Shown here in pieces: positions 7,041 through 64,000 of a stretch of DNA of 64,000 bases. The notes under the pieces are model-generated. The model saw nothing but the letters and a program-made list of their open reading frames with translations. It made no database searches and was not told the origin of the DNA. The first letter of the stretch is position 1. Every line of letters begins with the position of its first letter. The translations under genes were made by a program, and so were the position numbers. The DNA comes from an uncultured bacterium (lineage in GTDB: Bacteria > CAYUVA01): the NCBI GenBank assembly GCA_964448115.1, contig CAYUVA010000015.1:3953-67952 (forward strand). Reading direction: 5' to 3'.

Positions 7041-7076
7041 GGCTTACCCTCCGTTAAGAGGTTAATAACTTCCATG

Positions 7077-24950: not shown

Positions 24951-25577
24951 ATGATTGCAATTGAACAAAAGATTGTTGATATATCCAAAGAATACTCCAG
25001 AAGATTGTCTGAAAAGATAGAATCTCGCCTTACTGAACTGCAATCGGATGATACATCTCATTATATGATCTTCTCACTTCTAGGTATTGATGAAAAAGAA
25101 AGTGAAGCTATTGATAAATATCAAAATATGGGGCGATTTGTATATCGATATGCGGGTTCATTCCTTGAGAATGTAGTACTTTTATGTTTTGAATCAGTAT
25201 ATCCGGAAATTGAAACACCCTTTAAGATCAATAATTCTCTTTCATCAAAACCTCGTAAATTTAGCATTGACTTTCGCTTGGGCGATAGGTTGTATGAGAT
25301 AAAATGGAGGGATGCCACAACTGATGGAGATCATGTTGTTAAGGAACACACAAAAGCAAGAAGTTGCAAAGAGGCAGGATTTATTCCTGTGAGATTGATG
25401 TTTTTTTATCCTAATCGCAAACAGGCAATCATAATACAAGACACCATAAAGAGCTTATATAAGGGTCTGGATGGAGAGTGCTACTTTGGCAAAGATGCCT
25501 GGGATCATGTTTACCACAAAACAGATATCGACCTTTTAGAAATACTAAGGAATATAGCTGAAAGGAGGGCTGGATAG
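24951..25577 (+). CDS. putative type II restriction endonuclease (PD-(D/E)xK)
   Basis: 208 aa. Candidate catalytic motif SIDFRLGDRLYEIKW (D-x8-E-x-K). It lies 3 nt upstream of a DNA methyltransferase gene in an AT-rich island. Confidence 0.5.
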   Translation: MIAIEQKIVDISKEYSRRLSEKIESRLTELQSDDTSHYMIFSLLGIDEKESEAIDKYQNMGRFVYRYAGSFLENVVLLCFESVYPEIETPFKINNSLSSKPRKFSIDFRLGDRLYEIKWRDATTDGDHVVKEHTKARSCKEAGFIPVRLMFFYPNRKQAIIIQDTIKSLYKGLDGECYFGKDAWDHVYHKTDIDLLEILRNIAERRAG

Positions 25578-25580
25578 TCC

Positions 25581-26789
25581 ATGTCTCAAATTATTCACGG
25601 GGATTGTCTAACTGAGCTTAAAAATATTGCTTCGGAGAGCATTGACCTTATTTATGTGGATCCTCCATTTTTCACCCAGAAAAAGCAAAAATTAATCAGT
25701 AGAAAAACCGGACAGATATACTCCTTTAATGATACATGGAAAAATATTGAAGAATATATTAGTTTTATAAAAGATAGAATACTGGAATGCCATAGAGTAT
25801 TAAAAGATACAGGAAGTTTATTTTTTCATTGTGATCGTAAGGCATCACATCATATACGAATAATACTTGATGATATTTTTGGTACTGATAATTTCCATAG
25901 CGACATTGTATGGACTTATCGGAGATGGTCTAATTCCAAGAAAGGTCTTTTACACTGTCATCAAAATATTTTATTTTATAGCAAAAGTAAAAACTATAAA
26001 TTTAATACTCTATACGAAGATTATTCTGCAACTACAAATATAGATCAAATATTTCAACTTCGTGTTAGGGATGAAAATGGAAAGACTATTTATAAGCAAA
26101 ATGATCATGGCGAGTATGAGTTAAATCCATCTAAAAAAGGTGTTCCACTTTCTGATGTATGGTACATCCCGTATCTTAATCCCAAAGCTAAAGAGAGAAC
26201 CGGATTCCCAACCCAAAAACCTGTCTTATTGCTTGAAAGAATAATACAACTTGTTACCGATGAAGGTGATATAGTCCTAGACCCTTTCTGCGGAAGTGGA
26301 ACCACTCTTGTTGCAGCAAAACTATGCAACCGTAAATATATTGGGATAGATATCTTAAAAGAGGCTGTTGGACTTTCCAGACAGCGGATTGAGAATCCCA
26401 TAAAGACCGATTCTAACCTTATCAGAAACGGCATAAGTTCATATGTAAATCAAACTTCTGAAATATTAGAATTACTTGAAAAAATAGGTGCAATTCCGGT
26501 CCAAAGGAACAAAGGTATCGATGGATTTATCAAAATCAATAATATTATCAAACCTATTCCTGTTCGTATTCAAAGAAAAAATGAAACTATTGAATCCTGC
26601 ATTGAAACTTTGATAAATGCTTGTAGTAAAAATAAGTATCAATTCAAAATTTTAATTAAAACGAATAGTCTATCTAAACCTTCCATATATCCCATCACCG
26701 ATAATTTATTAAAATATAATATTGCTTTAATTGAAAATATCAATGATTTTATTAATAATAAAAAAAAGTATATTAATTTAACTCTGTAA
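25581..26789 (+). CDS. beta-class N6-adenine/N4-cytosine DNA methyltransferase with C-terminal extension
   Basis: Catalytic motif IV DPPF (IYVDPPFF) precedes the SAM-binding motif I (DPFCGSGTT). FPTQKPVLLLERII is also present. About 120 extra C-terminal residues. Confidence 0.9.
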   Translation: MSQIIHGDCLTELKNIASESIDLIYVDPPFFTQKKQKLISRKTGQIYSFNDTWKNIEEYISFIKDRILECHRVLKDTGSLFFHCDRKASHHIRIILDDIFGTDNFHSDIVWTYRRWSNSKKGLLHCHQNILFYSKSKNYKFNTLYEDYSATTNIDQIFQLRVRDENGKTIYKQNDHGEYELNPSKKGVPLSDVWYIPYLNPKAKERTGFPTQKPVLLLERIIQLVTDEGDIVLDPFCGSGTTLVAAKLCNRKYIGIDILKEAVGLSRQRIENPIKTDSNLIRNGISSYVNQTSEILELLEKIGAIPVQRNKGIDGFIKINNIIKPIPVRIQRKNETIESCIETLINACSKNKYQFKILIKTNSLSKPSIYPITDNLLKYNIALIENINDFINNKKKYINLTL

Positions 26790-30737: not shown

Positions 30738-32197
30738 TAAAGCAGGCAAACAGCATCCACAAGGCATTAGGGATCCTGCTGTTTTTTATGTTGTTTTTTT
30801 CTCCGCTGGTTTTTTCTCCCTTTAGCTTCAGTATCTTCAGGCAGCCGAAGCTATGGTTTTCCCTGACGCTAATTCTAATGGTGATGATCTTAAGAGGTTT
30901 ATTACCGAATTCCTCACCAGCTTACACCAGGCTCAAAAGTAAAGATAATTCCTCTCTCCCCAGCCCTCTCCCAGGGGGAGAGGGAGATCCTGTCCCCTCT
31001 CCCCGTGGGAGAGGGTCAGGGAGAGGGTTTAACTCTAATGGTTCTACTAATGTAATTTACACGAGTAGCGATAATAAAGGTAAACTTTTTCATGATTACC
31101 CGCTAAGGCTTCTGATTATCCCAGGCATCATCATTGCAGCGCTCAATATCGCCTTTTCATCGCACCCGCTGCTAAGTGCTAAATACTACTGCATTATAGC
31201 TTTGTTTTTTTATCTGCACCTGGTCGTTGCCGTTGATTTTTCGGGCATTGGCTCGCGGAGGTATCTGCTTATCGGGATGCTTAGCGGCGCAGTAATATCA
31301 TCGATCTACTCGATTATGCAGTTCATGGACATCGAGCCGATCTTCGAGCGAGCCGAGCGGGTCAAGTACCTCGGTTCAGCGATCTACAGCGCAGCCTTCA
31401 TGGGGCAGCCGACTTTGTTGGCAGGCTATCTTTGCGTGATGCCCTTTATTTTTCTGTGGCTTGCGATGCGTGCTAGCAAGCGCTGGCATAATATCGCAGG
31501 GCTTCTTGGATTTATGCTGACCACTGCGAGCCTGTTCGTAACCCAATCACGGGGCGCATTTGTCGGCTATGGAGTCGGCATGGTCGCCCTAACAGCGATT
31601 TTACTGAGATACCGCATATCGAGGCGGGCTGTAGGGTTCATTATAGCAATGATGCTATGTTTTATAGTGGCATCATCGGCTTATATCGCCACCAACAAGG
31701 ACTTTCGCGCCAAGATCATGCGCGGGATCAAGCTCAAGGGAAGCTATTCAGCAGCGACCAGGATCTTCTTCTGGCGGGTGGCGTTTGAGATGATGCGAGA
31801 GCGACCGATTATAGGCGTTGGACTGGGGAGATACGGCTATCATTACTATGATGTTGAGGTGATGCTCCACCGTGAGGGCAAGACCAGCCTAGCCACTGCC
31901 AAGGATGCGATGATCTTGCAGGCGCACAACGAGTTTATCCAGGTCGCCGCCGAGCTTGGTGCGCTGGGATTTTTATTATTTCTCGCCTTCAATCTAGGCA
32001 TCTTCAAGGTTGGCTTGCGCAAGCTAAGCCTTTATCGAGGTTATCCCCCAGATCAGCTATTCCAAGCCTGCCTCTTATCAGCGTTGATTTGCCTCTTGAC
32101 CTACAGTTTATTCAGCTTCCCGCTTCATATAGCCCCCTCCGCGCTGAACTATGTAGTGATAGGCGCGATGCTGTCGGGTAGGGGAAAAATTACTTAA
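30734..32197 (+). CDS. O-antigen ligase (Wzy_C) family polytopic membrane protein
   Basis: 487 aa with about 10-12 hydrophobic helices. Wzy_C-like loop (TQSRGAFVG...). Late motif ILQAHNEFIQVAAELG. The GTG start overlaps the secretin stop. Confidence 0.78.
   Translation: MIKQANSIHKALGILLFFMLFFSPLVFSPFSFSIFRQPKLWFSLTLILMVMILRGLLPNSSPAYTRLKSKDNSSLPSPLPGGEGDPVPSPRGRGSGRGFNSNGSTNVIYTSSDNKGKLFHDYPLRLLIIPGIIIAALNIAFSSHPLLSAKYYCIIALFFYLHLVVAVDFSGIGSRRYLLIGMLSGAVISSIYSIMQFMDIEPIFERAERVKYLGSAIYSAAFMGQPTLLAGYLCVMPFIFLWLAMRASKRWHNIAGLLGFMLTTASLFVTQSRGAFVGYGVGMVALTAILLRYRISRRAVGFIIAMMLCFIVASSAYIATNKDFRAKIMRGIKLKGSYSAATRIFFWRVAFEMMRERPIIGVGLGRYGYHYYDVEVMLHREGKTSLATAKDAMILQAHNEFIQVAAELGALGFLLFLAFNLGIFKVGLRKLSLYRGYPPDQLFQACLLSALICLLTYSLFSFPLHIAPSALNYVVIGAMLSGRGKIT
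30951..31027. repeat. compound palindromic G/C-rich repeat (two tandem hairpins plus a flanking partial copy) embedded in-frame in the ligase gene
   Basis: CCCTCTCCC(30964-30972)-AGG-GGGAGAGGG(30976-30984). CCCTCTCCC(30995-31003)-CGT-GGGAGAGGG(31007-31015). A further GGGAGAGGG at 31019-31027 faces CCTCTCTCCCC at 30951-30961. Confidence 0.6.
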
Positions 32198-32210: not shown

Positions 32211-33701
32211 TTATTGAGGTCCAAAATATCCTTTAGATTTAGTTTGATAGAATTTGAAATCGATAGTTTTTTTATTATTAGAATATAATTTATCTATTAT
32301 TTTATTTATTTCATTTAAATTCATGCTTGATGGATCATTGATTTCCTTATTTGCAACCAATTCATCAACAATATTATCAATAATTCTCATAAATATTCCT
32401 TGTTGGAAATATTCCTTATTATATGGTGGATAAGTAAACAGTATATTCATACCTTTTTTGAAATTCATTATTTTAAATAAAGCTTCTTGGCATTTTTGAC
32501 AAATAATAGTCTTATTTTTTATAATATTATTAACTGAATTACCCCAATAATGCATTGATTTTTTATCAATATTGTTATTGTTATTATTCTCAAATATCTT
32601 TATTTCATTTATGGAATTATATTTTCTATATCTTATTTCTTCAACAGAAAATTTAACACTTCCAAATCCGAAGGGTTTACCAAATCCTATTTTATGATAT
32701 ATATTTAATGGCAATGCTAAAGAATAGGTAATTAAATTTAATAATTGGTTAGATATTCCATCAAAATATATTCTAAACACATCTGATTTACTATTCTCAA
32801 TCATTGCTTCTACTTTATACTTATATATAATGGGCAATTCATCTGAATTTATTCTTTCATTTCTTCTATCATTATAGTGTAATTTTCTCCAGTTATTTTG
32901 ATACCATTCAAGACATTTATTATGATCTTGATGATAATAAAATTTTCTACCTCTGTATTTATTTCCAATAAATTCTGCAAATTCTTTTCTATCAACAGTC
33001 CTATATTCTATATCTTTAGGAGTGAAATACCACCAATTTGACATGCTAGGAGATGGTCCCCCAAGATAAGATTTACCTTCAATATCAGGCAAAAAATATT
33101 TACTACTTAAATTTTCTACATTAATAGAGGCATCTTCAATAGATATTCTTCCTTTAAGAGAAAATGCATCATTATTATCATCTTCCTTTTCAAAGATCTG
33201 TCCAAATAAAAAAGTTGAAATATCTAATTCCCATTCATTAAAAGGATCTTGATTAAGAGGTCTCTTGGGTCGATATTTTTTACTAAGTGCATAATTCTCA
33301 TTCTTCCATATCCGGTCTCCTATTTTAATGGTATAAGAATCAAAGACATTATAGCCTTTATGTCTTCCTTTCGTTTTTCGTGAACCTTTTATTTTCTCAT
33401 ATGTTTGGTTGTATTTACCTAACCAACCATCAGTTACAGCCTCAATAAAGCTTCTTAACATTCCTCTAATAGTAGAGCTAGGAATTATGGCTTTATTATC
33501 TTCTCTGTAAAATTTACTTTCTTTTATTCTTTTTTCGCTCTCTGGAATCTGTTGACCCACAATATGTACAGGAGTCAATGCTTGAATATATAGCTCTATA
33601 TATCCTTCATATAATTCTCCCGAGGTCAAATCCTCATATTTGAAGAGATTTGGCTTATCACCAAACGGCACGAAATCATAAGGATTAGGTGGATGTGACA
33701 T
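32211..33701 (-). CDS. RAMP-superfamily protein (Cas7-group, Cmr6/Csm5/TIGR03986-like)
   Basis: 496 aa. The N-terminus MSHPPNPYDFVPF is the P-Y-[DN]-F-V-P start I associate with TIGR03986-type RAMPs. Beta1 YIQALTPVHIVG, AIIPSSTIRGMLRS, and glycine-rich loop GFGKPFGFGSVKF. 17-nt overlap with the upstream gene. Very AT-rich. Confidence 0.72.
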   Translation of the reverse strand: MSHPPNPYDFVPFGDKPNLFKYEDLTSGELYEGYIELYIQALTPVHIVGQQIPESEKRIKESKFYREDNKAIIPSSTIRGMLRSFIEAVTDGWLGKYNQTYEKIKGSRKTKGRHKGYNVFDSYTIKIGDRIWKNENYALSKKYRPKRPLNQDPFNEWELDISTFLFGQIFEKEDDNNDAFSLKGRISIEDASINVENLSSKYFLPDIEGKSYLGGPSPSMSNWWYFTPKDIEYRTVDRKEFAEFIGNKYRGRKFYYHQDHNKCLEWYQNNWRKLHYNDRRNERINSDELPIIYKYKVEAMIENSKSDVFRIYFDGISNQLLNLITYSLALPLNIYHKIGFGKPFGFGSVKFSVEEIRYRKYNSINEIKIFENNNNNNIDKKSMHYWGNSVNNIIKNKTIICQKCQEALFKIMNFKKGMNILFTYPPYNKEYFQQGIFMRIIDNIVDELVANKEINDPSSMNLNEINKIIDKLYSNNKKTIDFKFYQTKSKGYFGPQ

Positions 33702-34788
33702 TTTTTTCCTCCTTTATTCCTAAGGCTTCTCTTAGTACTTTTTTCGCTTCCTCATCGAATTCAAGTGTTATATTTTCTCTACGTAAAAGATCCTCAAGAA
33801 GATCTTCTTTATTATTTTCCTCACTGGAATCTGCTGTTTTCTTAACCACATATTCCTTCTCATCTTCATTAACTATACTCACCCTCCCCCTGCCGACGGA
33901 GGAGAGGGCGCCGAAGCGGATCATCCCATACTCGATCTCACGCTTCCATAATGCCATAAGCGCCATGTGTACACGCTCAGGCTCACGGATGGTGAAGGTA
34001 ACCTCAAACTCCATATTCCTGCCGAACTCTACGAAGGTGTGCAGCCCGCCTGACACCGATGCATGTGTTACCCTGTCCAGCGGATTGCGCATCTTTATAT
34101 GACGAATAGCGTTTGAGGGATCATAAACACTATCAGGCGTCCACTTTCCACAAGCTCCAGGTTCTTTCGTGCCTCCTGATAGTTTCCCTACCTCAATCTG
34201 CAAGCGCCCTTTATATCCTTTAGGTTCCTTTTTATTTGATTTTTCCTTGTCCTCTTGCTTCTTGTCGCTGTCCTCTTTACTCGTGTCGAGGGCTTGTCCG
34301 AACAAGCTAAAGACTAACTGCCACCCGGGATCCTTTAGCGCATTTTCTTGTTTTTTCTTGTAATTTTCATCAGCTTCTTCCTTTTTCTTCTGTATAAAGG
34401 CATCCCAATATTTTTCCTTCACCAGGTGTCTGATAGTCCAATTTCTCAAGGCTCCCCTGATCGCAGAGGCAGGGATGGTGTAAACAGGTTTTACTTCATT
34501 GTTCTCAAGAAACAATGTCATATAAGGTAGAGTAACCTGGGAAAATTTTTTATCATCCTCTCGGTCCGATTTATCTCTTGGTATCATTCTAAATTGACAT
34601 TCGCTTCCCCTTGCTTTTCCTATAGGCTTACCATCATTACCTATCGGGCTTTGTCGCCAAGAGGCATTGTGCGTACTCCGAATGAGCAGAGGTGTCTCGG
34701 TCTTAAATGTCCATTTAATGACCGCCAGGCTAGTCAGCTCAGAATAATCAGGTATCTTTTTGTCTTTATTACTAGTTTCGTTGATCAT
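33685..34788 (-). CDS. RAMP-superfamily protein (Cas7-like, large insertions)
   Basis: Start moved to the ATG at 34788 (MINETSNK...), giving 367 aa. FKTETPLLIRS, YTIPASAIRGALRNW, SLFGQA, and G-rich loop GALSSVGRGRVSI. 17-nt overlaps with the genes on both sides. Confidence 0.68.
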   Translation of the reverse strand: MINETSNKDKKIPDYSELTSLAVIKWTFKTETPLLIRSTHNASWRQSPIGNDGKPIGKARGSECQFRMIPRDKSDREDDKKFSQVTLPYMTLFLENNEVKPVYTIPASAIRGALRNWTIRHLVKEKYWDAFIQKKKEEADENYKKKQENALKDPGWQLVFSLFGQALDTSKEDSDKKQEDKEKSNKKEPKGYKGRLQIEVGKLSGGTKEPGACGKWTPDSVYDPSNAIRHIKMRNPLDRVTHASVSGGLHTFVEFGRNMEFEVTFTIREPERVHMALMALWKREIEYGMIRFGALSSVGRGRVSIVNEDEKEYVVKKTADSSEENNKEDLLEDLLRRENITLEFDEEAKKVLREALGIKEEKNVTST

Positions 34789-35824
34789 TTTGATTATCCT
34801 CCAATGCCTTAAAGAAGGCTTCTTTTGCTTTTTGTATGAATTCATCCTTCTTACCAGTTATATCTTCAAGGGCATTATAACCAGCTTCGTTCTTATCCAT
34901 TAGATTCTTTATCCAATCGCTTATTTTATCAGATTTCAACTCCTCTATCTTTGTTAGATTCCATTCAAACCTTCCAAATCCCCTAGTTGCCATAGCACCG
35001 AGGGTTAATGGGTAGATATCGGAGTTGAATCCCTCAAGCCCGAACAATAGCAGTCCAATCTCTAGTGGGGATAAATTCTGCCCACAGATTTCCACTTTGA
35101 ACTCGATTCCCTCCGGCACCACCTCAAAGTCATATAAAAGATGTTTACCGGCGGTGCCAGTTTTAGGATCAATAGCTACAGACATCAAACGATATGTGTA
35201 TTCATTAGGTTTCCAATCCAATAACCAGTTCTTTTTATTATCATCCTTATCATCCCAATTGGGTATGCTATTACTTGAAGGATTAGAGATGCATTTGGCA
35301 TCCCAGAATTCGAGTTTGCCTTCATGATATGTTGTGCCAAACATGGTCCCAAGCCAGCCATAATTTTCAAGGATTTTTTTCTTTTTTAATTTTAAATACT
35401 CTTCCTTCTTTTCTTTATCTGTAAGCATTCTACCATCTTTTTCTAATTCTTTTATTATATTTTCTAATTCTTTATTAAACTCTTCATCTTTAATAGCCCT
35501 ATATGATCTATTTAATTCATTACTATGTAATTTATAAAGATTATTCGTATCTTTCTTGTTAATTGATCTAATCACTTGATCTAACCAGCTATATAGACTT
35601 CCTTGTAATGCACTACCTGGTATGATTGGTTTACCCTTAAAATCTTTTACGATATAGGTATCGATTTTTTTCCTTTTTTCTCCCTTTCTTTCGACTGTTT
35701 TTTCTTCTTCTTTTCCTGAGCCTATGTGAAGTGGCGATAAGGTTTTGAGTGTCCCCGTGATTTTTATCCTGTTATCGAAGCCTTCTCCTTTGAATTTAGG
35801 CTTGTCATTCGTTGAGTTGCTCAT
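34772..35824 (-). CDS. RAMP-superfamily protein, Cas7 (Csm3/Cmr4-like)
   Basis: 350 aa. LKTLSPLHIGSG, KIDTYIVKDFKGKPIIPGSALQGSLYSW, MFGTT, and G-rich loop ATRGFGRFEW. A K/E-rich helical insertion follows the first core motifs. Confidence 0.8.
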   Translation of the reverse strand: MSNSTNDKPKFKGEGFDNRIKITGTLKTLSPLHIGSGKEEEKTVERKGEKRKKIDTYIVKDFKGKPIIPGSALQGSLYSWLDQVIRSINKKDTNNLYKLHSNELNRSYRAIKDEEFNKELENIIKELEKDGRMLTDKEKKEEYLKLKKKKILENYGWLGTMFGTTYHEGKLEFWDAKCISNPSSNSIPNWDDKDDNKKNWLLDWKPNEYTYRLMSVAIDPKTGTAGKHLLYDFEVVPEGIEFKVEICGQNLSPLEIGLLLFGLEGFNSDIYPLTLGAMATRGFGRFEWNLTKIEELKSDKISDWIKNLMDKNEAGYNALEDITGKKDEFIQKAKEAFFKALEDNQNDQRN

Positions 35825-35835
35825 TTTTCCCTCCC

Positions 35836-37662
35836 TTATAGATATTTATTGTAGAAACATACATTTGTTATTAGCACTTCCCCAAAGCCATTCTCCGGCA
35901 CAAAGGGGCATTTATCCCACGCTTTATCCCCATTAGCTTCATATTTCTCTTTAGCCCAATCTGGTATAGGTAATCCCTTATTATACCATTCATACATCTT
36001 ATTTTTTGCTTTGTCCTTTATTTTAAGTTTAAAGATACTTCCCGCTTTCGTTAGATAAAATGGATAATATTTTTTATTGCCTTGAAATCTCTTTAGAAGA
36101 TAACCGCCCTTCATAACCTGTGCTGCAAAGAAATCAACTAATTTGAGTGATCCGCCTGATACCTCGTTCCAATATTTATTATAAAGCTTTTTGAGTTCAT
36201 CGCCCGAATGCTCCATTATCATATCATCCGGATTGATCATCAGCGCATCCGATTGCAGGGCAATGAGCACCTCTTTGGTGTTCTCATCAAGCTGAGGTGG
36301 CTGGTGGCACTTATGCGCGGGCAGTGGCTCCAGGTATGCCTTGATTTTGCTGCATCCCTTGCCGAGTCGGCGAAAATGGGAATGTACAAACTCAAACAAA
36401 TCCTTTAGCACTGCATTTCTTTCATTTTCATCCACTCCATCCAACATAACCTCTCCGAGCCATAATATTGGTGCTTTATTGCTATCATGAGGACAGACAT
36501 ACTGGTAAGTATATAATGAGTTTTCTTTAGCGGATCGGAAATCACCCTCTATAGCAGTCCTTGAGTAGAAAAAGCGCCGCGGCGATACCCACCCGAAACG
36601 TTTTTTAATGTAAGAGTCATCCTTCCAATCAACCTGGAACTTTAAAACTCCTCGCTTAATAACATCCTTTTCGTAATCTTTGTTATCGAATGTCAGTATA
36701 TTCAAATAACATCCATTAACCTCCGCAATTGAATAAGGTATCACAATCGGTCTCGGCTTTTCCTTATAAGTAGGAAATGCGTGGGTAAAGCGAATTTTGC
36801 TGAAGTTTTCTTTTAGTTTTGCGAACTCATGATTTCCTGACACGACTTCTTTATTTAAACTATCTGGATCGGTTACCCTGTTTATATCAGCAGCTAGAGA
36901 GCCTTTGATGACTGCTCCGCTGATTATTTCTTCAGACTCAAGATAATTGCCCTTTTTCCTCGTACCTCCGAGCAGTAAAGGCTCCTCAGCCTCTATCCGT
37001 AGAAGGTAGCGTGTTTGGTTATTCTCTGTGGGTGAGTTATTGGGAACATTATCATTGACCTCGCATCGCTTAAGCTCGCATTTCTTAAGTTCGATGTCCA
37101 CACTCTGCACAGCGCCGAAGCCGACGGTCTTGAAGCCACCAAAGCCTGTAATCCACCTCAACGCAGGCTTCAGGGCATTGCATATCTCATCCGCCTTCGC
37201 TTCATCTAGGGCATAGAAAGATATTTTACCATTAAATTTAACAGTCATCCCTCTTGGGAATGGCATTTCAATAGATAAAAGTGCAGTTTCCTTTGTGGTT
37301 TTAAATGTCGGATCAATGCTTATGCGGTGGGCGTATTCGTTATCCAGAGTCTTTTCCAGGGGATAGAAATTGGATATCTCTAAAAGTCCTCTGTGGGGCC
37401 CGGGGTCATTTTCATCAGCTCCCTTGCCAAATAGTTTTTCTATAAATGATTTGCTAGATGTATTAAGCTCCTTCATCGCTTCTCGCAGCTTACCCTTGAT
37501 ATGACTCGAAGGGATGCAGATTCTATCCATGAAGTCTCGATGAAACATAACATCGATGCCGTACTCGGTTTTGCTAGTCGCCTTGACCATTATAGGCGCT
37601 CTTACATGGAAGGTAACATTAAGCTCGTATTTGAGTGCAAGTTGATTATTAGTTGTCATCAT
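35836..37662 (-). CDS. double-RAMP fusion: N-terminal Cas7-like domain plus C-terminal Cas5 (Cmr3/Csm4/Csx10)-like domain
   Basis: 608 aa. Domain 1 (aa about 1-195): GIDVMFHRDFMDRICIPSSHIKGKLREA, KLFGKG, GFGGFKTVGFGAV. Domain 2 (aa about 215-608): LLRIEAEEPLLLGG...EEIISGAVIKGSLAADI, C-terminal YLTKAGSIFKL and PENGFGEVLI. Confidence 0.68.
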   Translation of the reverse strand: MMTTNNQLALKYELNVTFHVRAPIMVKATSKTEYGIDVMFHRDFMDRICIPSSHIKGKLREAMKELNTSSKSFIEKLFGKGADENDPGPHRGLLEISNFYPLEKTLDNEYAHRISIDPTFKTTKETALLSIEMPFPRGMTVKFNGKISFYALDEAKADEICNALKPALRWITGFGGFKTVGFGAVQSVDIELKKCELKRCEVNDNVPNNSPTENNQTRYLLRIEAEEPLLLGGTRKKGNYLESEEIISGAVIKGSLAADINRVTDPDSLNKEVVSGNHEFAKLKENFSKIRFTHAFPTYKEKPRPIVIPYSIAEVNGCYLNILTFDNKDYEKDVIKRGVLKFQVDWKDDSYIKKRFGWVSPRRFFYSRTAIEGDFRSAKENSLYTYQYVCPHDSNKAPILWLGEVMLDGVDENERNAVLKDLFEFVHSHFRRLGKGCSKIKAYLEPLPAHKCHQPPQLDENTKEVLIALQSDALMINPDDMIMEHSGDELKKLYNKYWNEVSGGSLKLVDFFAAQVMKGGYLLKRFQGNKKYYPFYLTKAGSIFKLKIKDKAKNKMYEWYNKGLPIPDWAKEKYEANGDKAWDKCPFVPENGFGEVLITNVCFYNKYL

Positions 37663-39179
37663 TCACCCTCCTTTGGAACATAATCCCATAGATCTGCGAT
37701 CCAATAGAGCCACTTATATTCGTGGTCATTGATGATTTTGTCTCGCGTATTCTTAATAATTCTTTTATCAACAGGTGGCATTTCTACATTATCTAATACA
37801 AATTGAAAATGTTTTTCAACACCTTTTAAGTTGCATTTTCTCAGTTCATCCATGATTTGATAGAGCTTTGTTCTAGGGAAGTTGTTTTTGAATGCCAGGA
37901 TTGTTACAGTAACATCACAGAAATTCTCCTTAGTAATCAGCAGGTCATCGAATATCTTATTTTTGTAGAATGTGTTGGTGAACTCTTGGACTCCCCCTTG
38001 CAGTATGTCGATTGATTCGAGTATGAGGTAGTGCATTGCGTTGCCTTTTTCGTGTTTATCAGGTGGATCGGAACCGAGCTGTTTTTTCGCCATATCAACT
38101 AACTGGCTAGCGAATCGTTTCACTTGGAGTATGGGTGCTTTGTGATTGCAGAAAACCACGCCGAATGAGTGAGTGAGTGGCATACTACCAAAATTCATTT
38201 TATCGCAGTTCTCAAAGAAGTGCCACATGAAATCCCAGCCTAGCCAAGCCGGCAGCGCTACAGAAGCCTCATCCCCACCCCAGAGGGTGATCTCGATGCG
38301 ACATTTATTTTCATTGTTATCATTATAAATGAAACAATTCTTATCCATATAATTCAGAATAAATTCTTTGATAATTTTATTTCTACCACTATCAAGAGCA
38401 TTCTCAAAATTTCTATAATCATCTGGATTAACACAATTTTTATTCTTTAATTTGGTAAATTTATTTCCATCGAAATATATAAAAGCCTTTTTACCTCGAA
38501 GAACATCGGTGATATCATGTGGTTGATCTTTTACTAGTTGCTCAAAATCCCAAGTGTATATTAATGATTTTTTGTTATTTAGTATTTCTCTATTTATATA
38601 ATCTTTTTTCAGATTTCTACCCATTTTTTCTCTTCTTATATAAGTTATACGAGACAGATCTTTCTTAATTTTATCATAATGCATAGCTGGGCGCACTCCA
38701 TCCCAATTGCAATATGGTTTTTCTTTATAATCGACCTCTTTTTTAGGTAAAATCACTGTCGGTTGCTTGAATTGTTGAAGCCGTATCTTATTTTGAAGCT
38801 TTTCTTTATCTTCCTTAAAATCGCCACTTTCTTCTACAGCAGCACCGATAAAAGATGCTTCGTTTTTAGTATATTCCCGAGCAAAATTAAGTGCTTTATT
38901 AACTATTGTTTTGATCTGTTCTTCACTTTCATACTTCTTTTTTGTTTTATAAATACCAATACTTCCACCTGTTGTTATTGGATCAAGTAAAGAAGTAAGA
39001 TCAGAATTTGTATTAGGGTGTATTTTAAGGTCCGTAAACTTCACCGCATTCCTTAAAAGCAAGGATCCGCCGCGGATGGTGCTGATGTCGTCTGTGTCAT
39101 AGACGAAGCTGTCCAGGTTAACTGCCTCAATCTGAATGTAGTATTTCTTTTTCTCTGTCATTTTCTCACCTCTTGTCAC
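37659..39179 (-). CDS. small HD-less Cas10-like protein (two Palm/cyclase-like domains, GGDE motif)
   Basis: 506 aa. N-terminal Palm-like segment (YYIQIEAVNLDSF...ISTIRGGSLLL...ITTGGSIGIY). Second Palm has KAFIYFDGNKF (metal Asp), WGGDEASV (GGDE = nt 38268-38279, checked codon by codon) and THSFGVVFCNHKAPILQVKRFASQLVDMAKK. Helical C-terminus. No H-D motif region. 4-nt overlaps with both neighbours. Confidence 0.68.
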   Translation of the reverse strand: MTRGEKMTEKKKYYIQIEAVNLDSFVYDTDDISTIRGGSLLLRNAVKFTDLKIHPNTNSDLTSLLDPITTGGSIGIYKTKKKYESEEQIKTIVNKALNFAREYTKNEASFIGAAVEESGDFKEDKEKLQNKIRLQQFKQPTVILPKKEVDYKEKPYCNWDGVRPAMHYDKIKKDLSRITYIRREKMGRNLKKDYINREILNNKKSLIYTWDFEQLVKDQPHDITDVLRGKKAFIYFDGNKFTKLKNKNCVNPDDYRNFENALDSGRNKIIKEFILNYMDKNCFIYNDNNENKCRIEITLWGGDEASVALPAWLGWDFMWHFFENCDKMNFGSMPLTHSFGVVFCNHKAPILQVKRFASQLVDMAKKQLGSDPPDKHEKGNAMHYLILESIDILQGGVQEFTNTFYKNKIFDDLLITKENFCDVTVTILAFKNNFPRTKLYQIMDELRKCNLKGVEKHFQFVLDNVEMPPVDKRIIKNTRDKIINDHEYKWLYWIADLWDYVPKEGE

Positions 39180-40735
39180 GTATCTTTATCATACTTATCT
39201 AGTTTGTACAATATCAAAATATAAACAAGAAAAATTATAATTGCAATCAGATAAATTCCCTTGAAATATGGAAAAAACACTTGCCAAAATCCTGGATATT
39301 CTCCTGGGACTGATAAAAAGCCTACAATGAAACTCGATCCCTCGAAAAACAAAGCCACAATAGCGACTAATATTCCCCACCGATTTACTTTCTCAATAAA
39401 TTCATCCTTAAGGTATTGATAAGTGCGGTTAATCTCTGCTTCAACTTCCTTGTATAGCTTAGGAATTTGAAAACTCTCGTACATTGTATCGGTCATCTCG
39501 ATCCCCTGATCCTGATTTGTGAGTTCAAGGAACCAATACATATTAGAAAATTCGATAAAATCACTGCTAATTTTTCTAAATTTTTTCCTTTTGTTTTCTT
39601 CAATTATATCCTCTGTTGCTTTTGTAATTCTGAGCGAAAAATAAACCAACTGTGTTCTGTAGAATAATCCTAATAGGGCGATCTGATAATACATGGTCTT
39701 AAAATGTTTATAAAAGGTTTTATTATTAAAACCTTTATTAGGATCATCATTATCACTGAAAACTAAATATGCTATTGAATATCTAGTAAAACCATATATC
39801 GATCCCAAGTGTTGCCAACGCCTATATAGATGCGACTCCATTTCTTCACGAATAAATGACTCGTAATATTGCCAGTCTGAACCATGTTTATCAACATATA
39901 ACAATCTTGAAAATCCGCGCAGGACTTTATTATCGTAATCTTGAAGCAAATGATTTTTCAAATCATCTGGTATATCAAGAGAAACGAATGTATTAACAAA
40001 CATTCTATCATCAAGTATTGGCAGGATATAACGATCTTCAAAATTTGGCTTATTTTCAATCTCAATATTTCCTGAATTAAAAAAACTATGAATTATGGAA
40101 CAAATTACATTATTTATCTTAGGATGTTTATCATCATAATCAGGCTTTGATACATTATTTGAATCTATAAAACAATGATAACTATAGAAATCTTTAATCA
40201 TAAACTTTATACGAAGTGCGATATTTTGGTATTCAACTTGTTCTTCATAAGATGGGTATAGTAGTCGTGATAGATTATTGAAATCTAATACATCTTTAAA
40301 ACATACCTGATTTAAATCATTTTGGACATATTCAATCTGAAATGAAAGAATAAATATATCGGGTTCAAATTTATGTAGTACAAGATATGTGATATTAAAT
40401 TTATAAGAATTATCACTGTCGAATAATTCTACCTCAAACATACTTTCATTTTCATTATCTTTTTCATTTTTATCAAATGCTAAATAAGTTCTCAATAAAA
40501 TATTATTTTTTTTATTTTGATCTTTTCCATAAGTCAACAATGCTTCCCTTACATACGAATGAAAATAAATATATTCTTGCCAGTATTTCTCTTTTTCATA
40601 AGGCTTTTCTTCCCAATTAAGATTACCATTATATATTGGCAAATCATCCCCTTTCTTTATCCTATCCTTTCTTTCCTCCATCACAAACGGAAACATGAAA
40701 ATCGTCGAAAACTTCTTTACCTTAAAGTGCATCAT
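39176..40735 (-). CDS. CorA-topology membrane protein (large cytoplasmic domain plus two C-terminal TM helices); candidate membrane effector
   Basis: 519 aa. A roughly 450-aa soluble N-terminal region ends in a long helix (TYQYLKDEFIEKVNRW). TM1 is GILVAIVALFFEGSSFIVGFLSV, then a short loop (PGEYPGF), then TM2 IYLIAIIIFLVYILILY. No GMN motif. The ATGA overlap with the upstream gene was checked at 40732-40735. Confidence 0.45.
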   Translation of the reverse strand: MMHFKVKKFSTIFMFPFVMEERKDRIKKGDDLPIYNGNLNWEEKPYEKEKYWQEYIYFHSYVREALLTYGKDQNKKNNILLRTYLAFDKNEKDNENESMFEVELFDSDNSYKFNITYLVLHKFEPDIFILSFQIEYVQNDLNQVCFKDVLDFNNLSRLLYPSYEEQVEYQNIALRIKFMIKDFYSYHCFIDSNNVSKPDYDDKHPKINNVICSIIHSFFNSGNIEIENKPNFEDRYILPILDDRMFVNTFVSLDIPDDLKNHLLQDYDNKVLRGFSRLLYVDKHGSDWQYYESFIREEMESHLYRRWQHLGSIYGFTRYSIAYLVFSDNDDPNKGFNNKTFYKHFKTMYYQIALLGLFYRTQLVYFSLRITKATEDIIEENKRKKFRKISSDFIEFSNMYWFLELTNQDQGIEMTDTMYESFQIPKLYKEVEAEINRTYQYLKDEFIEKVNRWGILVAIVALFFEGSSFIVGFLSVPGEYPGFWQVFFPYFKGIYLIAIIIFLVYILILYKLDKYDKDT

Positions 40736-41610
40736 TGCCGAATGATCTCCTTGATGAAACGAGCAGCAACGCTCTGGAAGCCATCATCGCACTCGCTCGA
40801 TGCCTTTACTCCTAGAAATCCGCCATAAGCATCGGTTCGATGCCAGCGTTCACAACCTTTCGGGAATAACTCAAGTAGGTCTATTCCCCGCATGATAAAA
40901 TCCCTTGAGCCATAAAGGCTCAGCTTGCTTATCCCAGCGCTATTCTCTGTGATCACCATGATATCAGGGAGGCTCTTTAGCTTGCCTTTGCGATACAGCT
41001 CGACCTGAGCCTCGGTCTTGGGCAACTGGTGGAGATCGGCGATGATCGAAGTCCGATCCGAGCTTGTTCTGACAATGGCAAGCTTCCCGACCTGCTCACG
41101 GTTTTTATAATCGTTGCTCAGCAGCTCGATCTCCTCATCGCTGTACCCTTGAGCCTTTATGTCCAGTTCACGAATCCGCCTTATCTCATCCAGCTTTGCT
41201 CCTTCGGTGATCATCCCTAGTACATGGCTCTTATCATTGGCAGCAATGAGCTTTTCCTCTCTGGTAAGCTCATGCCCGATTAGCTCGGCAAACTGTTCGA
41301 GGGAGCTTTTTTCGCTGGAGCGGTTCAAGGATCCATAATCGTGGTGATCTATGATGATCAGATTATGCCCTGCCTCGATAAGTTCCTTCTCTTTGGCAGG
41401 TCCGGGGATCTCCACGATGATCACCGTCTCCTTGAGGTCTTCAAAGGTCGGCTGCGGCTCTTTTTCCAGGCGTGCGCCCCAGGGCTGCTTGGATACACGG
41501 ACATCCATGCCATATTTCCTTGCTATCTCGATTATCCTGGCGCTCTCTAGATCGTTCTTGGGAACGATCAATGAAGCATCTATTTTAGCTATTTCAGCCA
41601 ACTTTTCCAC
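40732..41610 (-). CDS. DHH-motif protein (possible NrN-like phosphoesterase; divergent)
   Basis: 292 aa. TVIIVEIPGP...(17 aa)...LIIIDHHDYG resembles DHH-family motifs II-III (DHH = nt 41341-41349, checked). The canonical motif I DxD and the DHHA1 GGGH motif are not evident (only AYGGF). The track start is GTG with no obvious RBS, so the 5' end is uncertain. Confidence 0.4.
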   Translation of the reverse strand: MEKLAEIAKIDASLIVPKNDLESARIIEIARKYGMDVRVSKQPWGARLEKEPQPTFEDLKETVIIVEIPGPAKEKELIEAGHNLIIIDHHDYGSLNRSSEKSSLEQFAELIGHELTREEKLIAANDKSHVLGMITEGAKLDEIRRIRELDIKAQGYSDEEIELLSNDYKNREQVGKLAIVRTSSDRTSIIADLHQLPKTEAQVELYRKGKLKSLPDIMVITENSAGISKLSLYGSRDFIMRGIDLLELFPKGCERWHRTDAYGGFLGVKASSECDDGFQSVAARFIKEIIRQ

Positions 41611-41812
41611 TCTAAATATTTGCTAAAATGCCGTAATTAAGTTTATATAACCTATTTTGATATTTCAATAGTCAATCTCAGAGTTACAAATATAGCCTTA
41701 AGGTTCAATGTCATCATAATGTTGATAATTTGTCCTTACATTTCAAGGATATAGCCACATTTTTATCTAATGCTCATTGGGATAAAAGCCAGATATCATT
41801 ATGAACTTTGGC

Positions 41813-62046: not shown

Positions 62047-64000
62047 ATGCAAGGAAAACCGACTAGTTTCTGGTCAAAGTTAAAAAAGGATGAATCAGGC
62101 GAGATATTGGGATGGCATCCTTTGGTGGATCACCTGGCTGATGTAGGCGCCTGCTGTGAGGCGCTATTACAGTTGCCCTTGCTCAATCGCCGACTTGCAA
62201 GGTTGGGGGGAATTGATGCACTCGATGAGATCACCATTGCAAGGCTATCATTCCTGGCATCCCTTCACGATATAGGTAAATTCAACACTGGTTTCCAGGA
62301 TGGCGCACTCAGCAAAAAAGCACCACGCATCGGGCATGTCTGGGAGTTTTGGGGGATATTCTCTCCATTGGGAGATAAATCCCTGAAAAAAACACTTATC
62401 GAGCTGATCAAGCTAAGGGAGATGCTATCCTGGCTTAAAAAATCACCTGTAGTCAAGCCGGATCAGTTGCTCATGGAGATGATCGCATCGATAATCTGCC
62501 ATCATGGAAAACCTATTCCTCTCAATAGACATACTGAACCTCCACCAAGTAAAGACTTATGGGAAGCAAAATTCAATCTAGAACCAATTCGTGGTCTTGA
62601 GCAAGCGATCACCAAGGCACTGGAGTGGTTTCCGGGTATATTCGATGCAAGCCAACCATCCCTGCCCGCCAATCACCAGTTCTATCATGCCTTTAATGGC
62701 TTAGTTACATTGGCTGATTGGATCGCCTCTACTGAAACATTCTTCCCTTATAGCAATGAAAAAGATGGTGATCGAATCGATTTAGCAAGGCAATCTGCGA
62801 AGAATGCTCTGGATGCAATGGGGCTGACAACCGATAGAATCAGAGCTGGTATGGGTAACAAGAAACCTGGCTTCTCTGATATTAGCTCGTACAAGGCTCC
62901 ACGACCGCTGCAGGTTCTTATCCAAGGGCTACCATACGATGAATCTGGTGATCTTGTGCTCCTGGAATCGGAGACCGGGAGCGGCAAGACCGAGGCAGCG
63001 CTAATCCGGTTCATTCAGCTATTTCACGCCGGCAAGGTCGATGGCATATACTTTGCCCTGCCGACCCGCACCTCAGCAATGCAAATCTACAAACGGGTAT
63101 GCGCAGCAATAAACAGATGCTTCCCGGATTATAGTCGGCGACCGCCGGTGATACTCGCTGTGCCTGGATATCTTGGAGTCGATGGTCAGGAGCGTACTCG
63201 TCCGGCTGGTTTTGAGCATCTATGGGATGATGATGAGAACTACCTTGTCCAGGCCCGGGGATGGGCTGCAGAGCAACCAAAGCGATACTTCACCGGATCA
63301 GTGATCATAGGCACCATCGACCAGGCATTGTTTTCAACCCTGATGGTGAAACATTCACACTTAAGGGCGACTGCTCTTTTACGGCATCTTTTAGTTGTCG
63401 ATGAGGTTCACGCATCCGATGTGTATATGACCGAGATGCTATTAGAGTTGGTTAGACGGCAACTCGAATGCGGTGGATATGTGCTGCTGATGTCCGCAAC
63501 ACTAGGATCTGCCATGCGGGCCAGGTTTTTATACCCGCCTCATCAGAAGCCTGATTATGCAAAACACAAGGACGATAAGTATCCCTTGATAACTCTTATG
63601 ACTGGGAAAGATACTCGCTTTATTCCTATTAAGCATACTTTGAAAACTAAAATAGTTGATTGTAAGATAAAGTCTATTATCGATCAGCATGACCAGGTTG
63701 CACTCATGGCGCTTGATGCTGCCACAAAGGGAGCAAAGGTGCTTGTGCTGCGCAATACAGTAGATGATTGTATAAAAACCCAACAGGCACTGGAACAAGC
63801 TGCCTATATCCATAATAAAGCTGACCTGCTATACAAGTGCAAGGGGGTCATTACCTGCCATCATTCCCGTTTTGCTGAGCCTGACCGCCAGGATCTTGAT
63901 AAGGCGATAGAGAAAGCAGTTGGAAAAGATGCACCAAATAAGGGATGCGTTGTAGTGGCAACCCAGACCGTTCAGCAGAGCTTAGACCTCGACTCGGATA
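62047..64000 (+). CDS. cas3: CRISPR-associated helicase/nuclease Cas3 (N-terminal HD domain plus DEAD/DEAH-box helicase; 3' end beyond the window)
   Basis: Not in the ORF track because it is open at the right edge. I translated it manually from the ATG at 62047 (AAGGAGG RBS at 62034-62040): MQGKPTSFWSKLKK...WHPLVDHLADVG...LASLHDIGKFN...IICHHGKP (HD domain). Helicase motif I is LESETGSGKTEAAL, motif II VVDEVHASD, motif III SATLG, and VATQTVQQSLDLDSD follows. No stop in about 651 codons. Confidence 0.9.
   Translation, partial: MQGKPTSFWSKLKKDESGEILGWHPLVDHLADVGACCEALLQLPLLNRRLARLGGIDALDEITIARLSFLASLHDIGKFNTGFQDGALSKKAPRIGHVWEFWGIFSPLGDKSLKKTLIELIKLREMLSWLKKSPVVKPDQLLMEMIASIICHHGKPIPLNRHTEPPPSKDLWEAKFNLEPIRGLEQAITKALEWFPGIFDASQPSLPANHQFYHAFNGLVTLADWIASTETFFPYSNEKDGDRIDLARQSAKNALDAMGLTTDRIRAGMGNKKPGFSDISSYKAPRPLQVLIQGLPYDESGDLVLLESETGSGKTEAALIRFIQLFHAGKVDGIYFALPTRTSAMQIYKRVCAAINRCFPDYSRRPPVILAVPGYLGVDGQERTRPAGFEHLWDDDENYLVQARGWAAEQPKRYFTGSVIIGTIDQALFSTLMVKHSHLRATALLRHLLVVDEVHASDVYMTEMLLELVRRQLECGGYVLLMSATLGSAMRARFLYPPHQKPDYAKHKDDKYPLITLMTGKDTRFIPIKHTLKTKIVDCKIKSIIDQHDQVALMALDAATKGAKVLVLRNTVDDCIKTQQALEQAAYIHNKADLLYKCKGVITCHHSRFAEPDRQDLDKAIEKAVGKDAPNKGCVVVATQTVQQSLDLDSD

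Follow-up and report, generated by a model that had tools for sequence, protein, structure and literature searches.

How would a type III CRISPR effector operon that has no array beside it obtain its guides, and what kind of complex would those guides enter? The DNA analysed here, a stretch of 64 kb from an uncultured bacterium (the window), carries such an operon: seven intact minus-strand reading frames, running from 41610 to 32211 and joined in translationally coupled fashion by 4-nt overlaps, one 11-nt gap and 17-nt overlaps. A sequence-only reading had described these genes, with the same coordinates and junctions, as a type III-like Cas10/RAMP operon that also contains CorA-like and DHH genes, and had proposed profile searches as a check on its RAMP and Cas10 calls. 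The ORF coordinates, read again, agree, and the searches (PADLOC, Pfam, TIGRFAM and PDB) uphold the calls at profile level for every protein. It seems probable, at roughly 0.7, that the operon is a horizontally acquired III-D interference-plus-signalling module that would receive its crRNAs in trans, with Cas7-5 fused and the other three Cas7 proteins separate. The sole non-coding gap bordering the seven genes, 202 AT-rich nucleotides 5′ of the first gene (41611–41812, minus strand), is likely the operon promoter region; upstream of the DHH gene there is a weak sigma-70-like match (41668–41640, minus strand), at the level of consensus only.

Subtype and subunits of the effector complex

The gene order and the Cas7-Cas5 fusion had been thought to lie outside the known type III layouts, and the lack of Cas11 had been counted as a further misfit. 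Both layout features are those of subtype III-D2, solved in 2026 (PDB 9wxh), in which the order is CorA-Cas10-Cas7-5-Cas7x3 (PMC13294483). The solved complex consists of Cas10, Cas7-5 and Cas7x3 only, with no Cas11 subunit, and the C-terminal domain of its Cas10 is Cas11-like (PMC13294483); the absence of Cas11 is thus normal for III-D2. Close kinship with this SAM-AMP-signalling subtype already accounts for most of what looked odd about the module. Judged by its proteins' sequences, the region is a type III-D effector operon of the same Cas10 clade as III-D2. The two have in common the order CorA-Cas10-Cas7-5-Cas7 domains, an HD-less GGDE Cas10 with the E8/Q186 pair and a helical C-terminal domain, the lack of a Cas11 subunit, CorA as the effector, a Cas7-5 that aligns end to end with conserved catalytic D29 and A(-8) pocket, and an INS/TIGR03986 region on the last Cas7.

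The two also differ. Cas7x3 of III-D2 is one protein of 1235 aa, whereas the module has three genes (350, 367 and 496 aa); a VapBC-like toxin-antitoxin pair in III-D2 has an NrN-type DHH gene in its place here; the module has neither cas6 nor an array; and its proteins share about 30% identity or less with their characterised III-D2 counterparts. The unfused, three-gene Cas7 state is found in 29 of the 71 classifiable loci of the family, one of which (L019) has the identical order NrN-CorA-Cas10-Cas7-5-Cas7-Cas7-Cas7, together with a Cas6 fragment and an array. The III-Dv system of Synechocystis (PDB 8s9t-8s9x) likewise combines an INS-bearing Cas7 with partial subunit fusion, but it fuses Cas7, Cas5 and Cas11 into one protein (791 aa) and also has Cas7-2x and Csx19, and the module lacks a Cas11 domain, Csx19 and Cas7-2x.

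Cas10 (37659–39179, minus strand; 506 aa, or 500 aa if translation starts at the following ATG) is, as had been proposed, an HD-less protein with two Palm domains and a GGDE motif. It matches the PADLOC Cas10 profile (4.8e-27) and the III-D2 Cas10 (PDB 9wxh_B, 2e-35), and its layout is Palm1, linker, Palm2 and a helical C-terminal domain. The alignment to 9wxh_B extends through the Cas11-like domain, and a C-terminal helical bundle is present in an AlphaFold model (pLDDT 88.4, pTM 0.88). The best 50 PDB hits of this model in Foldseek are all Cas10, Csm1 or Cmr2, the top one being the III-Dv Cas10 (8s9t_C, TM 0.68).

The Cas7-5 protein (35836–37662, minus strand; 608 aa), a fusion of Cas7.1 and Cas5, aligns to PDB 9wxh_C from end to end (1.1e-57; query 14-598, chain 6-605) and to the III-D Csm4 profile of PADLOC over its whole length (9.4e-45). 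Its D37 corresponds to the catalytic D29 of III-D2, and the tag-pocket residues K58, F287, I371, Y384, L523 and W582 are kept, including the pocket for the 5′-terminal A(-8) (F287, W582) and the stacking residues. The tag-contact residues are identical to those of relatives with arrays ending in ATTGAGAC. [quoted passage not shown] One element of III-D2 is missing, the W351-bearing insertion of the Lid, which III-D2 needs for SAM-AMP2.

The fusion and the three further RAMPs had all been called correctly; Pfam PF03787 (RAMPs) matches the latter at 2.1e-24 (Cas7.2), 4.8e-11 (Cas7.3) and 2.5e-13 (Cas7.4). These three stand-alone minus-strand genes are collinear with the fused Cas7x2, Cas7-INS and Cas7x3 proteins of relatives. 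Cas7.2 (34772–35824; 350 aa) matches TIGR02581 (2.4e-25), aligns to residues 16-82 of Cas7x3 (9wxh_D) and is 36% identical to residues 5-281 of the Cas7x2 of one relative, L008 (8e-47). Cas7.3 (33685–34788; 367 aa) is 35% identical to residues 315-570 of the same protein (3e-49). The longest ORF here spans 33685-34845 (386 aa), and the start at 34788, an ATG, fits the N-termini of homologues. Orthologues of 316-367 aa occupy the same position in four relatives (L002, L003, L004 and L006); a sequence search of the PDB returned no match for Cas7.3, which, unlike its III-D2 counterpart, lacks a four-Cys zinc finger. Cas7.4 (32211–33701; 496 aa), with an INS and a C-terminal extension, is of the TIGR03986 type (1.7e-40); it matches the C-terminal region of Cas7-11e (4.9e-21), aligns to residues 875-1088 of Cas7x3 (9wxh_D) and is 37% identical to residues 61-639 of the L008 Cas7-INS (7e-52).

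Genomic context and the source of guides

The module is flanked, as noted previously, by an O-antigen-ligase-like gene and by EngB, AnmK and LepB. GC content is 0.32-0.41 across exactly the seven genes and 0.44-0.49 in the flanks; since this low-GC island has its edges at the module, horizontal acquisition seems likely. No CRISPR array was found in the 64 kb by TRF, two repeat searches or Rfam, no non-coding gap outside the cas3 region exceeds 430 nt, and among the other 49 ORFs of 100 aa or more, cas3 apart, none hits a further Cas family. These repeat and profile searches agree with the earlier statement that array, cas6, cas1/2 and CARF protein are absent from the window. Its only other cas gene is indeed a cas3 on the opposite strand, 20.4 kb away, with a start codon and ribosome-binding site at 62047; the window holds its 5′ part (62047–64000, plus strand), and the gene continues beyond. 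It is type I-E-like, with PADLOC Cas3e as the best match (1.6e-124) and matches to TIGR01596 (HD) and TIGR01587 (helicase). This gene is context, a candidate neighbour system and not part of the module. Such orphan status is unusual among relatives: of the 28 whose flanks extend 3 kb or more on each side, 26 carry cas6, adaptation genes or an array next to the module, and here there is none within 22-32 kb.

Since the module brings no array, no cas6 and no adaptation genes, mature crRNAs would have to reach it from another part of the genome. The kept A(-8) pocket, stacking residues and tag contacts suggest that the complex is still crRNA-guided, and the most likely source would be an array whose repeats end in a AUUGAGAC-like tag, with a Cas6 encoded elsewhere. 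The neighbouring type I-E system is a less likely source. There are precedents for such sharing: the III-B modules of Marinomonas mediterranea and Sulfolobus islandicus REY15A are array-less, horizontally acquired and use type I crRNAs, and a role as horizontally acquired backups has been proposed for them (PMC5576922). Like the module, they are interference modules without processing or adaptation genes in genomes with a type I system. They differ in being III-B rather than III-D, and SAM-AMP/CorA chemistry and an I-E-like co-resident distinguish the present case; for them crRNA sharing is documented (PMC5576922), whereas for the module it is a proposal.

The co-resident system invites a specific version of this idea, in which the module is a backup that loads Cas6e-processed I-E crRNAs from an array presumably located after the cas3 operon, beyond the window. 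Repeats of I-E systems are not known to end in a AUUGAGAC-type tag, and direct borrowing would therefore need plasticity. M. mediterranea supplies an example, its III-B complex using Cas6f-processed I-F crRNAs despite dissimilar repeats (PMC5576922), and the nearby cas3 and the low-GC island without cas6 or array would suit such an arrangement. We nonetheless think it unlikely: the Cas7-5 tag contacts are indistinguishable from those of relatives with ATTGAGAC-ending repeats, the two loci lie 20 kb apart with unrelated housekeeping genes between them, no I-E array is seen in the window, and a III-A system of Serratia was not seen to use I-E or I-F spacers (PMC5576922).

A module with this context may also be stranded, its effector and signalling genes having come in, or been left behind, without cas6, array and adaptation genes, so that they have no guides now and are silent or non-functional without having yet decayed. 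The adjacency of cas6, adaptation genes or array in 26 of 28 relatives, the exact fit of the island to the seven genes and the similarly bare state of two further loci of the family (L047 and L061) are what such a remnant would lead one to expect. We regard it as doubtful, in that all seven frames are intact and their junctions coupled, the catalytic and ligand-contact residues examined are all conserved or conservatively replaced, and an idle copy would be expected to decay, some toxicity of free CorA having been reported (PMC10600005).

Of the two alternatives in the sequence-only reading, borrowed crRNAs are favoured by the intact tag pocket and catalytic residues and by the III-B precedent (PMC5576922); the other, an array-independent derivative, gained no positive support. 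A complex exapted to a non-CRISPR RNA, or to none, with Cas10/CorA signalling serving another purpose, has as its sole support the lack of array and cas6 in 64 kb, with the type IV-B complex on non-CRISPR RNA a distant conceptual precedent. It is very improbable: the 5′-tag pocket, thumb-bearing Cas7 series, catalytic aspartate and Cas10 activation machinery are as in array-bearing relatives, every one of its proteins has an ortholog in array-bearing L019, and no domain gain or loss points to a new function.

Signalling and proposed mechanism

The lack of a CARF or SAVED effector had also been listed as a misfit, but CorA is itself the effector in SAM-AMP signalling and the DHH protein a predicted SAM-AMP phosphodiesterase of the NrN type, CorA and NrN being established partners in such signalling (PMC10600005). 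III-D2 makes SAM-AMP and SAM-AMP2, no cOA, and has CorA as effector (PMC13294483). In the Cas10 alignment the catalytic and SAM-recognition residues are retained: E18, N21, S73, Q136 and D237 correspond to III-D2 E8, N11, S123, Q186 and D286, and G301-E304 is the GGDE motif. The SAM-recognition pair E8/Q186 is thus conserved; among 50 CorA-linked Cas10 proteins of the family the first position is E in 48 and the second Q in all 50. The adenine-contacting D307 of III-D2 is E here.

Both proteins had been called before, as CorA-like and as DHH-motif. The membrane protein CorA (39176–40735, minus strand; 519 aa) matches the PADLOC CorA profiles over nearly its full length (5.8e-74 and 2.3e-61) and shares 36% identity with the CorA portion of a fusion protein in L002; a PDB sequence search gave no match. 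The DHH protein (40732–41610, minus strand; 292 aa, 289 aa in another assembly of the same DNA) matches PADLOC DHH_CorA (1.4e-23) and, over residues 20-193, the NrN structure 9lq9 (1.6e-15). Its motif IIIDHHD, read directly from the translation, contains D88-H89-H90, whose counterparts in B. fragilis NrN, D85/H86/H87, are essential. In L002 NrN and CorA form one fused protein, and its N-terminal part shares 43% identity with the DHH protein; the two are also fused in L008. By analogy, the DHH protein is predicted to be a SAM-AMP-degrading off switch.

The III-B (Cmr) system of B. fragilis (PMC10600005) shares with the module an HD-less Cas10, CorA paired with an adjacent NrN and the intact DHH motif, and by homology the logic of a SAM-AMP signal that is made and then degraded would be common to both. 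Its complex, in contrast, is built from Cmr1-6, has Cas11 (Cmr5) as a separate subunit and lacks a Cas7-Cas5 fusion or INS-bearing Cas7, and its locus has the cas6 and array that the module lacks nearby. The CorA proteins of III-B and of the HyVt-522 III-D2 system are only 15% identical (Mitsuda et al.). That Cas10 here makes a cyclic oligoadenylate or another nucleotide, which CorA senses in place of SAM-AMP, is hard to credit given the III-D2 products (PMC13294483), the kept E8/Q186 and the adjoining NrN-type gene, even though Actinomyces CorA clades linked to Csm6-2 are proposed to respond to cA6 (PMC11229360) and the classification of 2025 did not settle which ligand the III-D CorA binds.

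On the preferred reading, that of a III-D module guided in trans, a mechanism can be modelled by homology on PDB 9wxh and the B. fragilis system. Cas10, Cas7-5, Cas7.2, Cas7.3 and Cas7.4-INS would assemble on one crRNA, Cas7-5 gripping its 8-nt 5′ tag. When a foreign transcript pairs with it and the 3′ anti-tag of that transcript fails to match the tag, the Palm domains of Cas10 would become active, and Cas10 would convert SAM and ATP to SAM-AMP, with probably little or no SAM-AMP2, because Cas7-5 lacks the tryptophan needed for it. SAM-AMP would open or perturb CorA and so arrest the infected cell, the NrN-type enzyme would hydrolyse the signal and reset it, and cutting of the target RNA by Cas7.1 D37 would also switch Cas10 off. 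Against this reading stand the absence of any crRNA source in the 64 kb, the possibility that the module is stranded where 26 of 28 relatives are not, and, at the level of the proteins, an identity to III-D2 of only about 30% and the change of D307 to E.

A III-D2-like architecture with SAM-AMP and CorA is known already. Should the neighbouring I-E system turn out to supply the guides, phages whose PAM or seed mutations let them escape I-E would still meet RNA-triggered immunity through SAM-AMP and CorA.

Composition and subtype of the operon

The seven minus-strand open reading frames that the sequence-only reading had placed between 41610 and 32211 are all present, and encode proteins of 292, 519, 506, 608, 350, 386 and 496 aa; the 386-aa frame becomes 367 aa when begun at an ATG at 34788, a start that agrees with the N-termini of its homologues. 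Adjacent frames overlap by 4 nt or, at two junctions, by 17 nt, apart from a single 11-nt gap, as had been described. Profile searches, which that reading had asked for, back each of its protein assignments. The first gene specifies an NrN-type DHH protein (292 aa; PADLOC DHH_CorA, 1.4e-23; PDB NrN 9lq9, 1.6e-15) that carries the D88-H89-H90 motif, and it overlaps by 4 nt the gene for a 519-aa CorA membrane protein (PADLOC CorA, 5.8e-74 over residues 10-511). [quoted passage not shown] The 350-, 367- and 496-aa proteins (Cas7.2, Cas7.3 and Cas7.4) match RAMP, Csm3 and III-D Cas7 profiles, the last of them TIGR03986 at 1.7e-40 and also the C-terminal Cas7 of Cas7-11. All four RAMP genes match Pfam RAMPs and TIGR or PADLOC Cas5/Cas7 profiles, and their products, collinear with solved and fused homologues, make up one Cas5 and a series of Cas7 domains; in the 1235-aa chain D of 9wxh, residues 16-82 are matched by the 350-aa protein and 875-1088 by the 496-aa protein.

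Profiles, PDB matches and a structural model agree that Cas10 has the two Palm domains and GGDE motif of a type III large subunit. The AlphaFold model, built from the family alignment (pLDDT 88.4, pTM 0.88), places a helical bundle at residues 397-496, and the sequence aligns to 9wxh chain B up to residue 504 of 506. The best 50 PDB matches of this model in Foldseek are all Cas10, Csm1 or Cmr2, headed by the III-Dv Cas10 (TM 0.68) in a library older than 9wxh. Cas10 lacks an HD domain and ends in a domain that stands in for Cas11, and none of the seven proteins matches a Cas11 profile.

The mechanism of the III-D/III-D2 clade was solved in 2026. The III-D2 locus of 9wxh consists of Cas6, a toxin-antitoxin pair, CorA, Cas10, Cas7-5 and Cas7x3, and the complex contains only Cas10, Cas7-5, Cas7x3 and crRNA, with no Cas11 subunit; its Cas10 lacks HD, has GGDE and ends in a Cas11-like five-helix bundle (PMC13294483). 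These facts remove two of the three misfits on which the sequence-only reading had dwelt, the missing Cas11 and the combination of an unfamiliar gene order with a Cas7-Cas5 fusion, since both are properties of the 9wxh system. That reading was right about a Cas10/RAMP operon with no array, cas6 or cas1/2 in the window; the layout it found unfamiliar is that of III-D2.

The correspondence with III-D2 is incomplete. The Cas7-5 fusion, which joins Cas7.1 to a Lid-bearing Cas5, and CorA are common to both, whereas the three Cas7 domains that Cas7x3 holds in one polypeptide are here three frames with their own starts and stops, summing to 1213 aa against 1235 aa. The VapBC-like toxin-antitoxin pair is absent and an NrN-type DHH gene stands in that place, and where the III-D2 locus has Cas6 the window has no cas6, array or adaptation gene. 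Type III-Dv is more distant: the Cas7-Cas5-Cas11 fusion of that type has a C-terminal domain beyond Cas5 that the window fusion lacks, 8s9t_A was not matched significantly in a PDB sequence search, Cas7.2 and Cas7.3 each have their own gene where III-Dv has Cas7-2x, and the PADLOC Csx19 profile matches none of the seven proteins. The nearest Cas10 relatives are 30-36% identical. We regard the module as a divergent member of the III-D/III-D2 clade, at about 36% identity to its nearest Cas10 relative; having the Cas10 of the III-D2 clade and no Cas7x3, it is most aptly described as a variant of III-D that stands at the unfused end of the III-D2 lineage.

Fusion of the Cas7 genes across the family

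Species-representative genomes were scanned with a Cas10 family alignment, and 80 of the 245 loci detected were retained, from Desulfobacterota, Chloroflexota, Acidobacteriota, Nitrospirota, KSB1, Gammaproteobacteria and Methanothrix; in all of these, open reading frames were called, profiles were built from the window proteins and arrays were detected. Loci are cited by survey handle (L002 and so on). Since at least one contig was counted twice (L008 and L018 are the same contig), the counts that follow are approximate: among 71 classifiable loci, 29, the window included, have Cas7-5 with three separate Cas7 genes, 31 have Cas7-5, Cas7x2 and Cas7-INS, eight have the Cas7-5 and Cas7x3 of III-D2 proper, and three have everything fused (L055, 1915 aa; L069, 1957 aa; L036, a truncated frame of at least 1098 aa). 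In L055 and L069, both Thermoanaerobaculia MAGs, Cas7.1, Cas5, Cas7.2, Cas7.3 and Cas7.4 lie in one frame downstream of Cas10. L069 also has an unusual arrangement at 1-8200, where several Cas2-like frames lie in between seven short arrays, upstream of the CorA-Cas10 module.

We considered that the three RAMP genes might be a frameshifted Cas7x3 pseudogene, and reject this: the same layout occurs in 28 other loci of several phyla, and a split conserved in so many relatives is not a frameshift or sequencing artefact. The five-gene layout recurs in the nearest Cas10 relatives (L002, L003, L004 and L006), and a Deltaproteobacteria MAG (L019) has exactly the order of the window, NrN-CorA-Cas10-Cas7-5-Cas7-Cas7-Cas7, with a Cas6 fragment upstream and a four-repeat array downstream. 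Against a Nitrospirae MAG (L008), the 350- and 367-aa window proteins match successive parts of the 578-aa Cas7x2, residues 5-281 (8e-47) and 315-570 (3e-49), and the 496-aa protein matches the 647-aa Cas7-INS at 7e-52. The clade displays a graded series, from separate genes through Cas7x2 with Cas7-INS and Cas7x3 to one polypeptide of some 1,900 aa. The series is relevant to the route that has been proposed from III-D to the III-E effector, itself a single protein.

The predicted messenger and its partners

The III-D2 system makes SAM-AMP and SAM-AMP2 instead of cyclic oligoadenylates, growth arrest requires CorA, and SAM-AMP synthesis is lost in an E8A/Q186A double mutant of Cas10 (PMC13294483). 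Published residues were transferred through HMMER alignments, in which 9wxh chain B is offset by 20 residues because of a tag. In III-D2 numbering, the window Cas10 keeps E8, N11, L12, S29, S123, Q186, D286, G287, K289, F290, F306, GGDE and K420, and differs at D307 (E), W124 (I) and K425 (E). E8 and Q186 correspond to window E18 and Q136, as expected of an acceptor site adapted to SAM; across the Cas10 family the Q186 position is invariant and the E8 position nearly so. Cas7-5 keeps the catalytic D29 (window D37) and K50, F281, I374, L523 and W589, which cap or stack on the 5′ tag, with a conservative replacement of F387 by Y. A catalytic Asp in Cas7.2 and Cas7.3 was looked for on family alignments, which are too noisy for this purpose. 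Around its residue 350, Cas7-5 also lacks a nine-residue insertion of the Lid; in III-D2 this insertion, which bears W351, is needed for SAM-AMP2 and dispensable for SAM-AMP (PMC13294483). Its absence leads us to predict that the module would make mainly SAM-AMP, and suggests a single-messenger variant.

In the type III-B system of B. fragilis, NrN is a DHH phosphodiesterase specific for SAM-AMP, and its gene adjoins or is fused with corA (PMC10600005); the window likewise has a corA and an adjacent NrN-type DHH gene with its catalytic motif. The lack of a CARF effector is thereby explained, CorA being the effector in III-D2 and NrN the degrader of SAM-AMP in B. fragilis. In predicted function the module resembles both III-D2 and the CorA/NrN system of B. 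fragilis, pairing a III-D-type complex with an NrN-type predicted SAM-AMP phosphodiesterase.

CorA occurs in 52 of the surveyed loci, and NrN, either separate or fused to CorA, accompanies it in 24 of them, spread from L002 to L090 (L002 and L008 were confirmed individually). The 2025 classification states that III-D CorA loci are without known SAM-AMP-cleaving enzymes (PMC12669027). NrN is common in this clade, which appears to be at odds with that statement; we regard the finding as a minor correction rather than as a new principle. At the level of open reading frames, two loci (L052 and L082) encode proteins of about 1000-1015 aa in which an NrN-type DHH domain is seemingly fused C-terminal to an INS-bearing Cas7.4; such a fusion would tether a SAM-AMP-degrading enzyme to the effector complex.

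In 17 other loci CorA's place is taken by a membrane protein of the 4TM type (Pfam S_4TM; PADLOC "4TM effector", 2.4e-56), for example at L003:16723-17616 and L004:16729-17628 and, in the same position, in L012, L015, L024, L026, L029-L032, L034, L045 and L046. NrN is absent from all 17. The Cas10 proteins of these loci have the SAM-recognition E in 15 of 17 and the Q in 17 of 17, and given that this pair is kept, the 4TM protein may represent another class of effector responsive to SAM-AMP. No joint mention of 4TM and SAM-AMP was found in the literature searched.

Isolation of the module and the source of its guides

Between 32 and 42 kb GC content is only 0.32-0.41, compared with 0.44-0.49 on either side, which marks the operon as a compositional island. 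Its neighbors are as first described: an IctB/O-antigen-ligase-like gene, a secretin and FtcD on one side, and EngB, AnmK, LepB and acetate kinase on the other. No direct repeat of at least 10 nt is common to both island edges, and a promoter/terminator scan of this AT-rich region was uninformative (50 promoter-like sites versus 35 expected). A type II restriction-modification pair at 24951-26789 (plus strand; REase, 208 aa, 8.6e-63; MTase, 402 aa, 1.1e-168) lies in a second low-GC patch (0.376, 24-26 kb) about 5.4 kb from the module, and at 30964-31015 a 21-nt palindromic G+C-rich element, CCCTCTCCCAGGGGGAGAGGG, occurs twice, 31 nt apart, within the O-antigen-ligase-like frame. A DnaE-type polymerase at 2049-5156 (plus strand) has best database relatives only about 52% identical, from Acidobacteria, KSB1 and Bacteroidetes MAGs and labeled "error-prone DNA polymerase" by several sources; no close genome was found. 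The host lineage is poorly sampled.

The lack of an array, cas6 or adaptation genes near the module holds throughout the 64-kb window. Tandem Repeats Finder and two repeat searches detected no CRISPR array there, neither Rfam CRISPR-DR nor any other Rfam family matched, and there is no sizeable non-coding gap. The other 49 open reading frames gave no profile match to Cas6, Cas1, Cas2 or another Cas family, and the 74 PADLOC families they did match are all explained by the two genes of the type II restriction-modification pair and by a PRTase-like frame. A single further cas gene is present, a Cas3e-like cas3 that starts at 62047 (plus strand) and runs off the end of the window. A cas6, adaptation genes or an array accompany 26 of the 28 family loci that have 3 kb or more of flanking sequence on each side (the bare ones are L047 and L061), so the bareness of the window is real and, for this family, unusual. 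Among type III systems at large it is nothing out of the ordinary: modules of III-B, III-C and III-D are frequently without these genes and found alongside type I systems, whose crRNAs they can use, and they have been proposed to be horizontally acquired backups (PMC5576922).

Four sources of guides can be ranked, since the tag contacts of Cas7-5 give no sign of adaptation. Arrays beside relatives end in the canonical type III tag, ATTGAGAC in L003, L019, L051 and L064, with variants ATTGAAAC, ACTAAGAC and GTTGAAAC at the arrays of other relatives. The tag-contact residues of the window Cas7-5 are those of the family majority and identical to L051 and L064. Adaptation to another 5′ tag is accordingly rejected, the contacts being as in relatives with ATTGAGAC arrays. 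Most likely, the module draws on a type III-style array and cas6 elsewhere in the genome.

Borrowing from the neighboring I-E system, whose cas3 lies 20.4 kb away, is less likely. The stronger version, in which the genome holds no compatible type III-style array and the module runs on Cas6e-processed I-E crRNAs or other non-cognate RNA, we judge improbable, with a chance of roughly one in five. The Cas3 fragment had no match in a reference genome scan, and in metagenomes only L091 matched, 58% identical and with frame sizes that fit an I-E operon, a locus that serves only as a proxy; its 8.9 kb contain no array. Exact-protein look-ups with the PduL-like gene (two alternative starts) and Cas10 found nothing, and those with CorA and an 83-aa frame recovered only short contigs from run SRR15988951, one of 8.1 and one of 2.3 kb, each ending within the range of the window. 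A stranded module without guides is possible. An array-independent function is unsupported.

The observation behind the sequence-only reading is thus confirmed and its interpretation upheld in part, as an array-less type III operon of a layout that is not new. Were I-E guides in use, this would be the first SAM-AMP/CorA "backup" module shown to use them despite a non-canonical 5′ tag. Few members of the family are, like this one, without a nearby cas6, array or adaptation gene, and the module can therefore be used to ask where array-less modules obtain their guides. The locus alone changes little; it is of use mainly for studying guide supply and as a naturally unfused version of III-D2.
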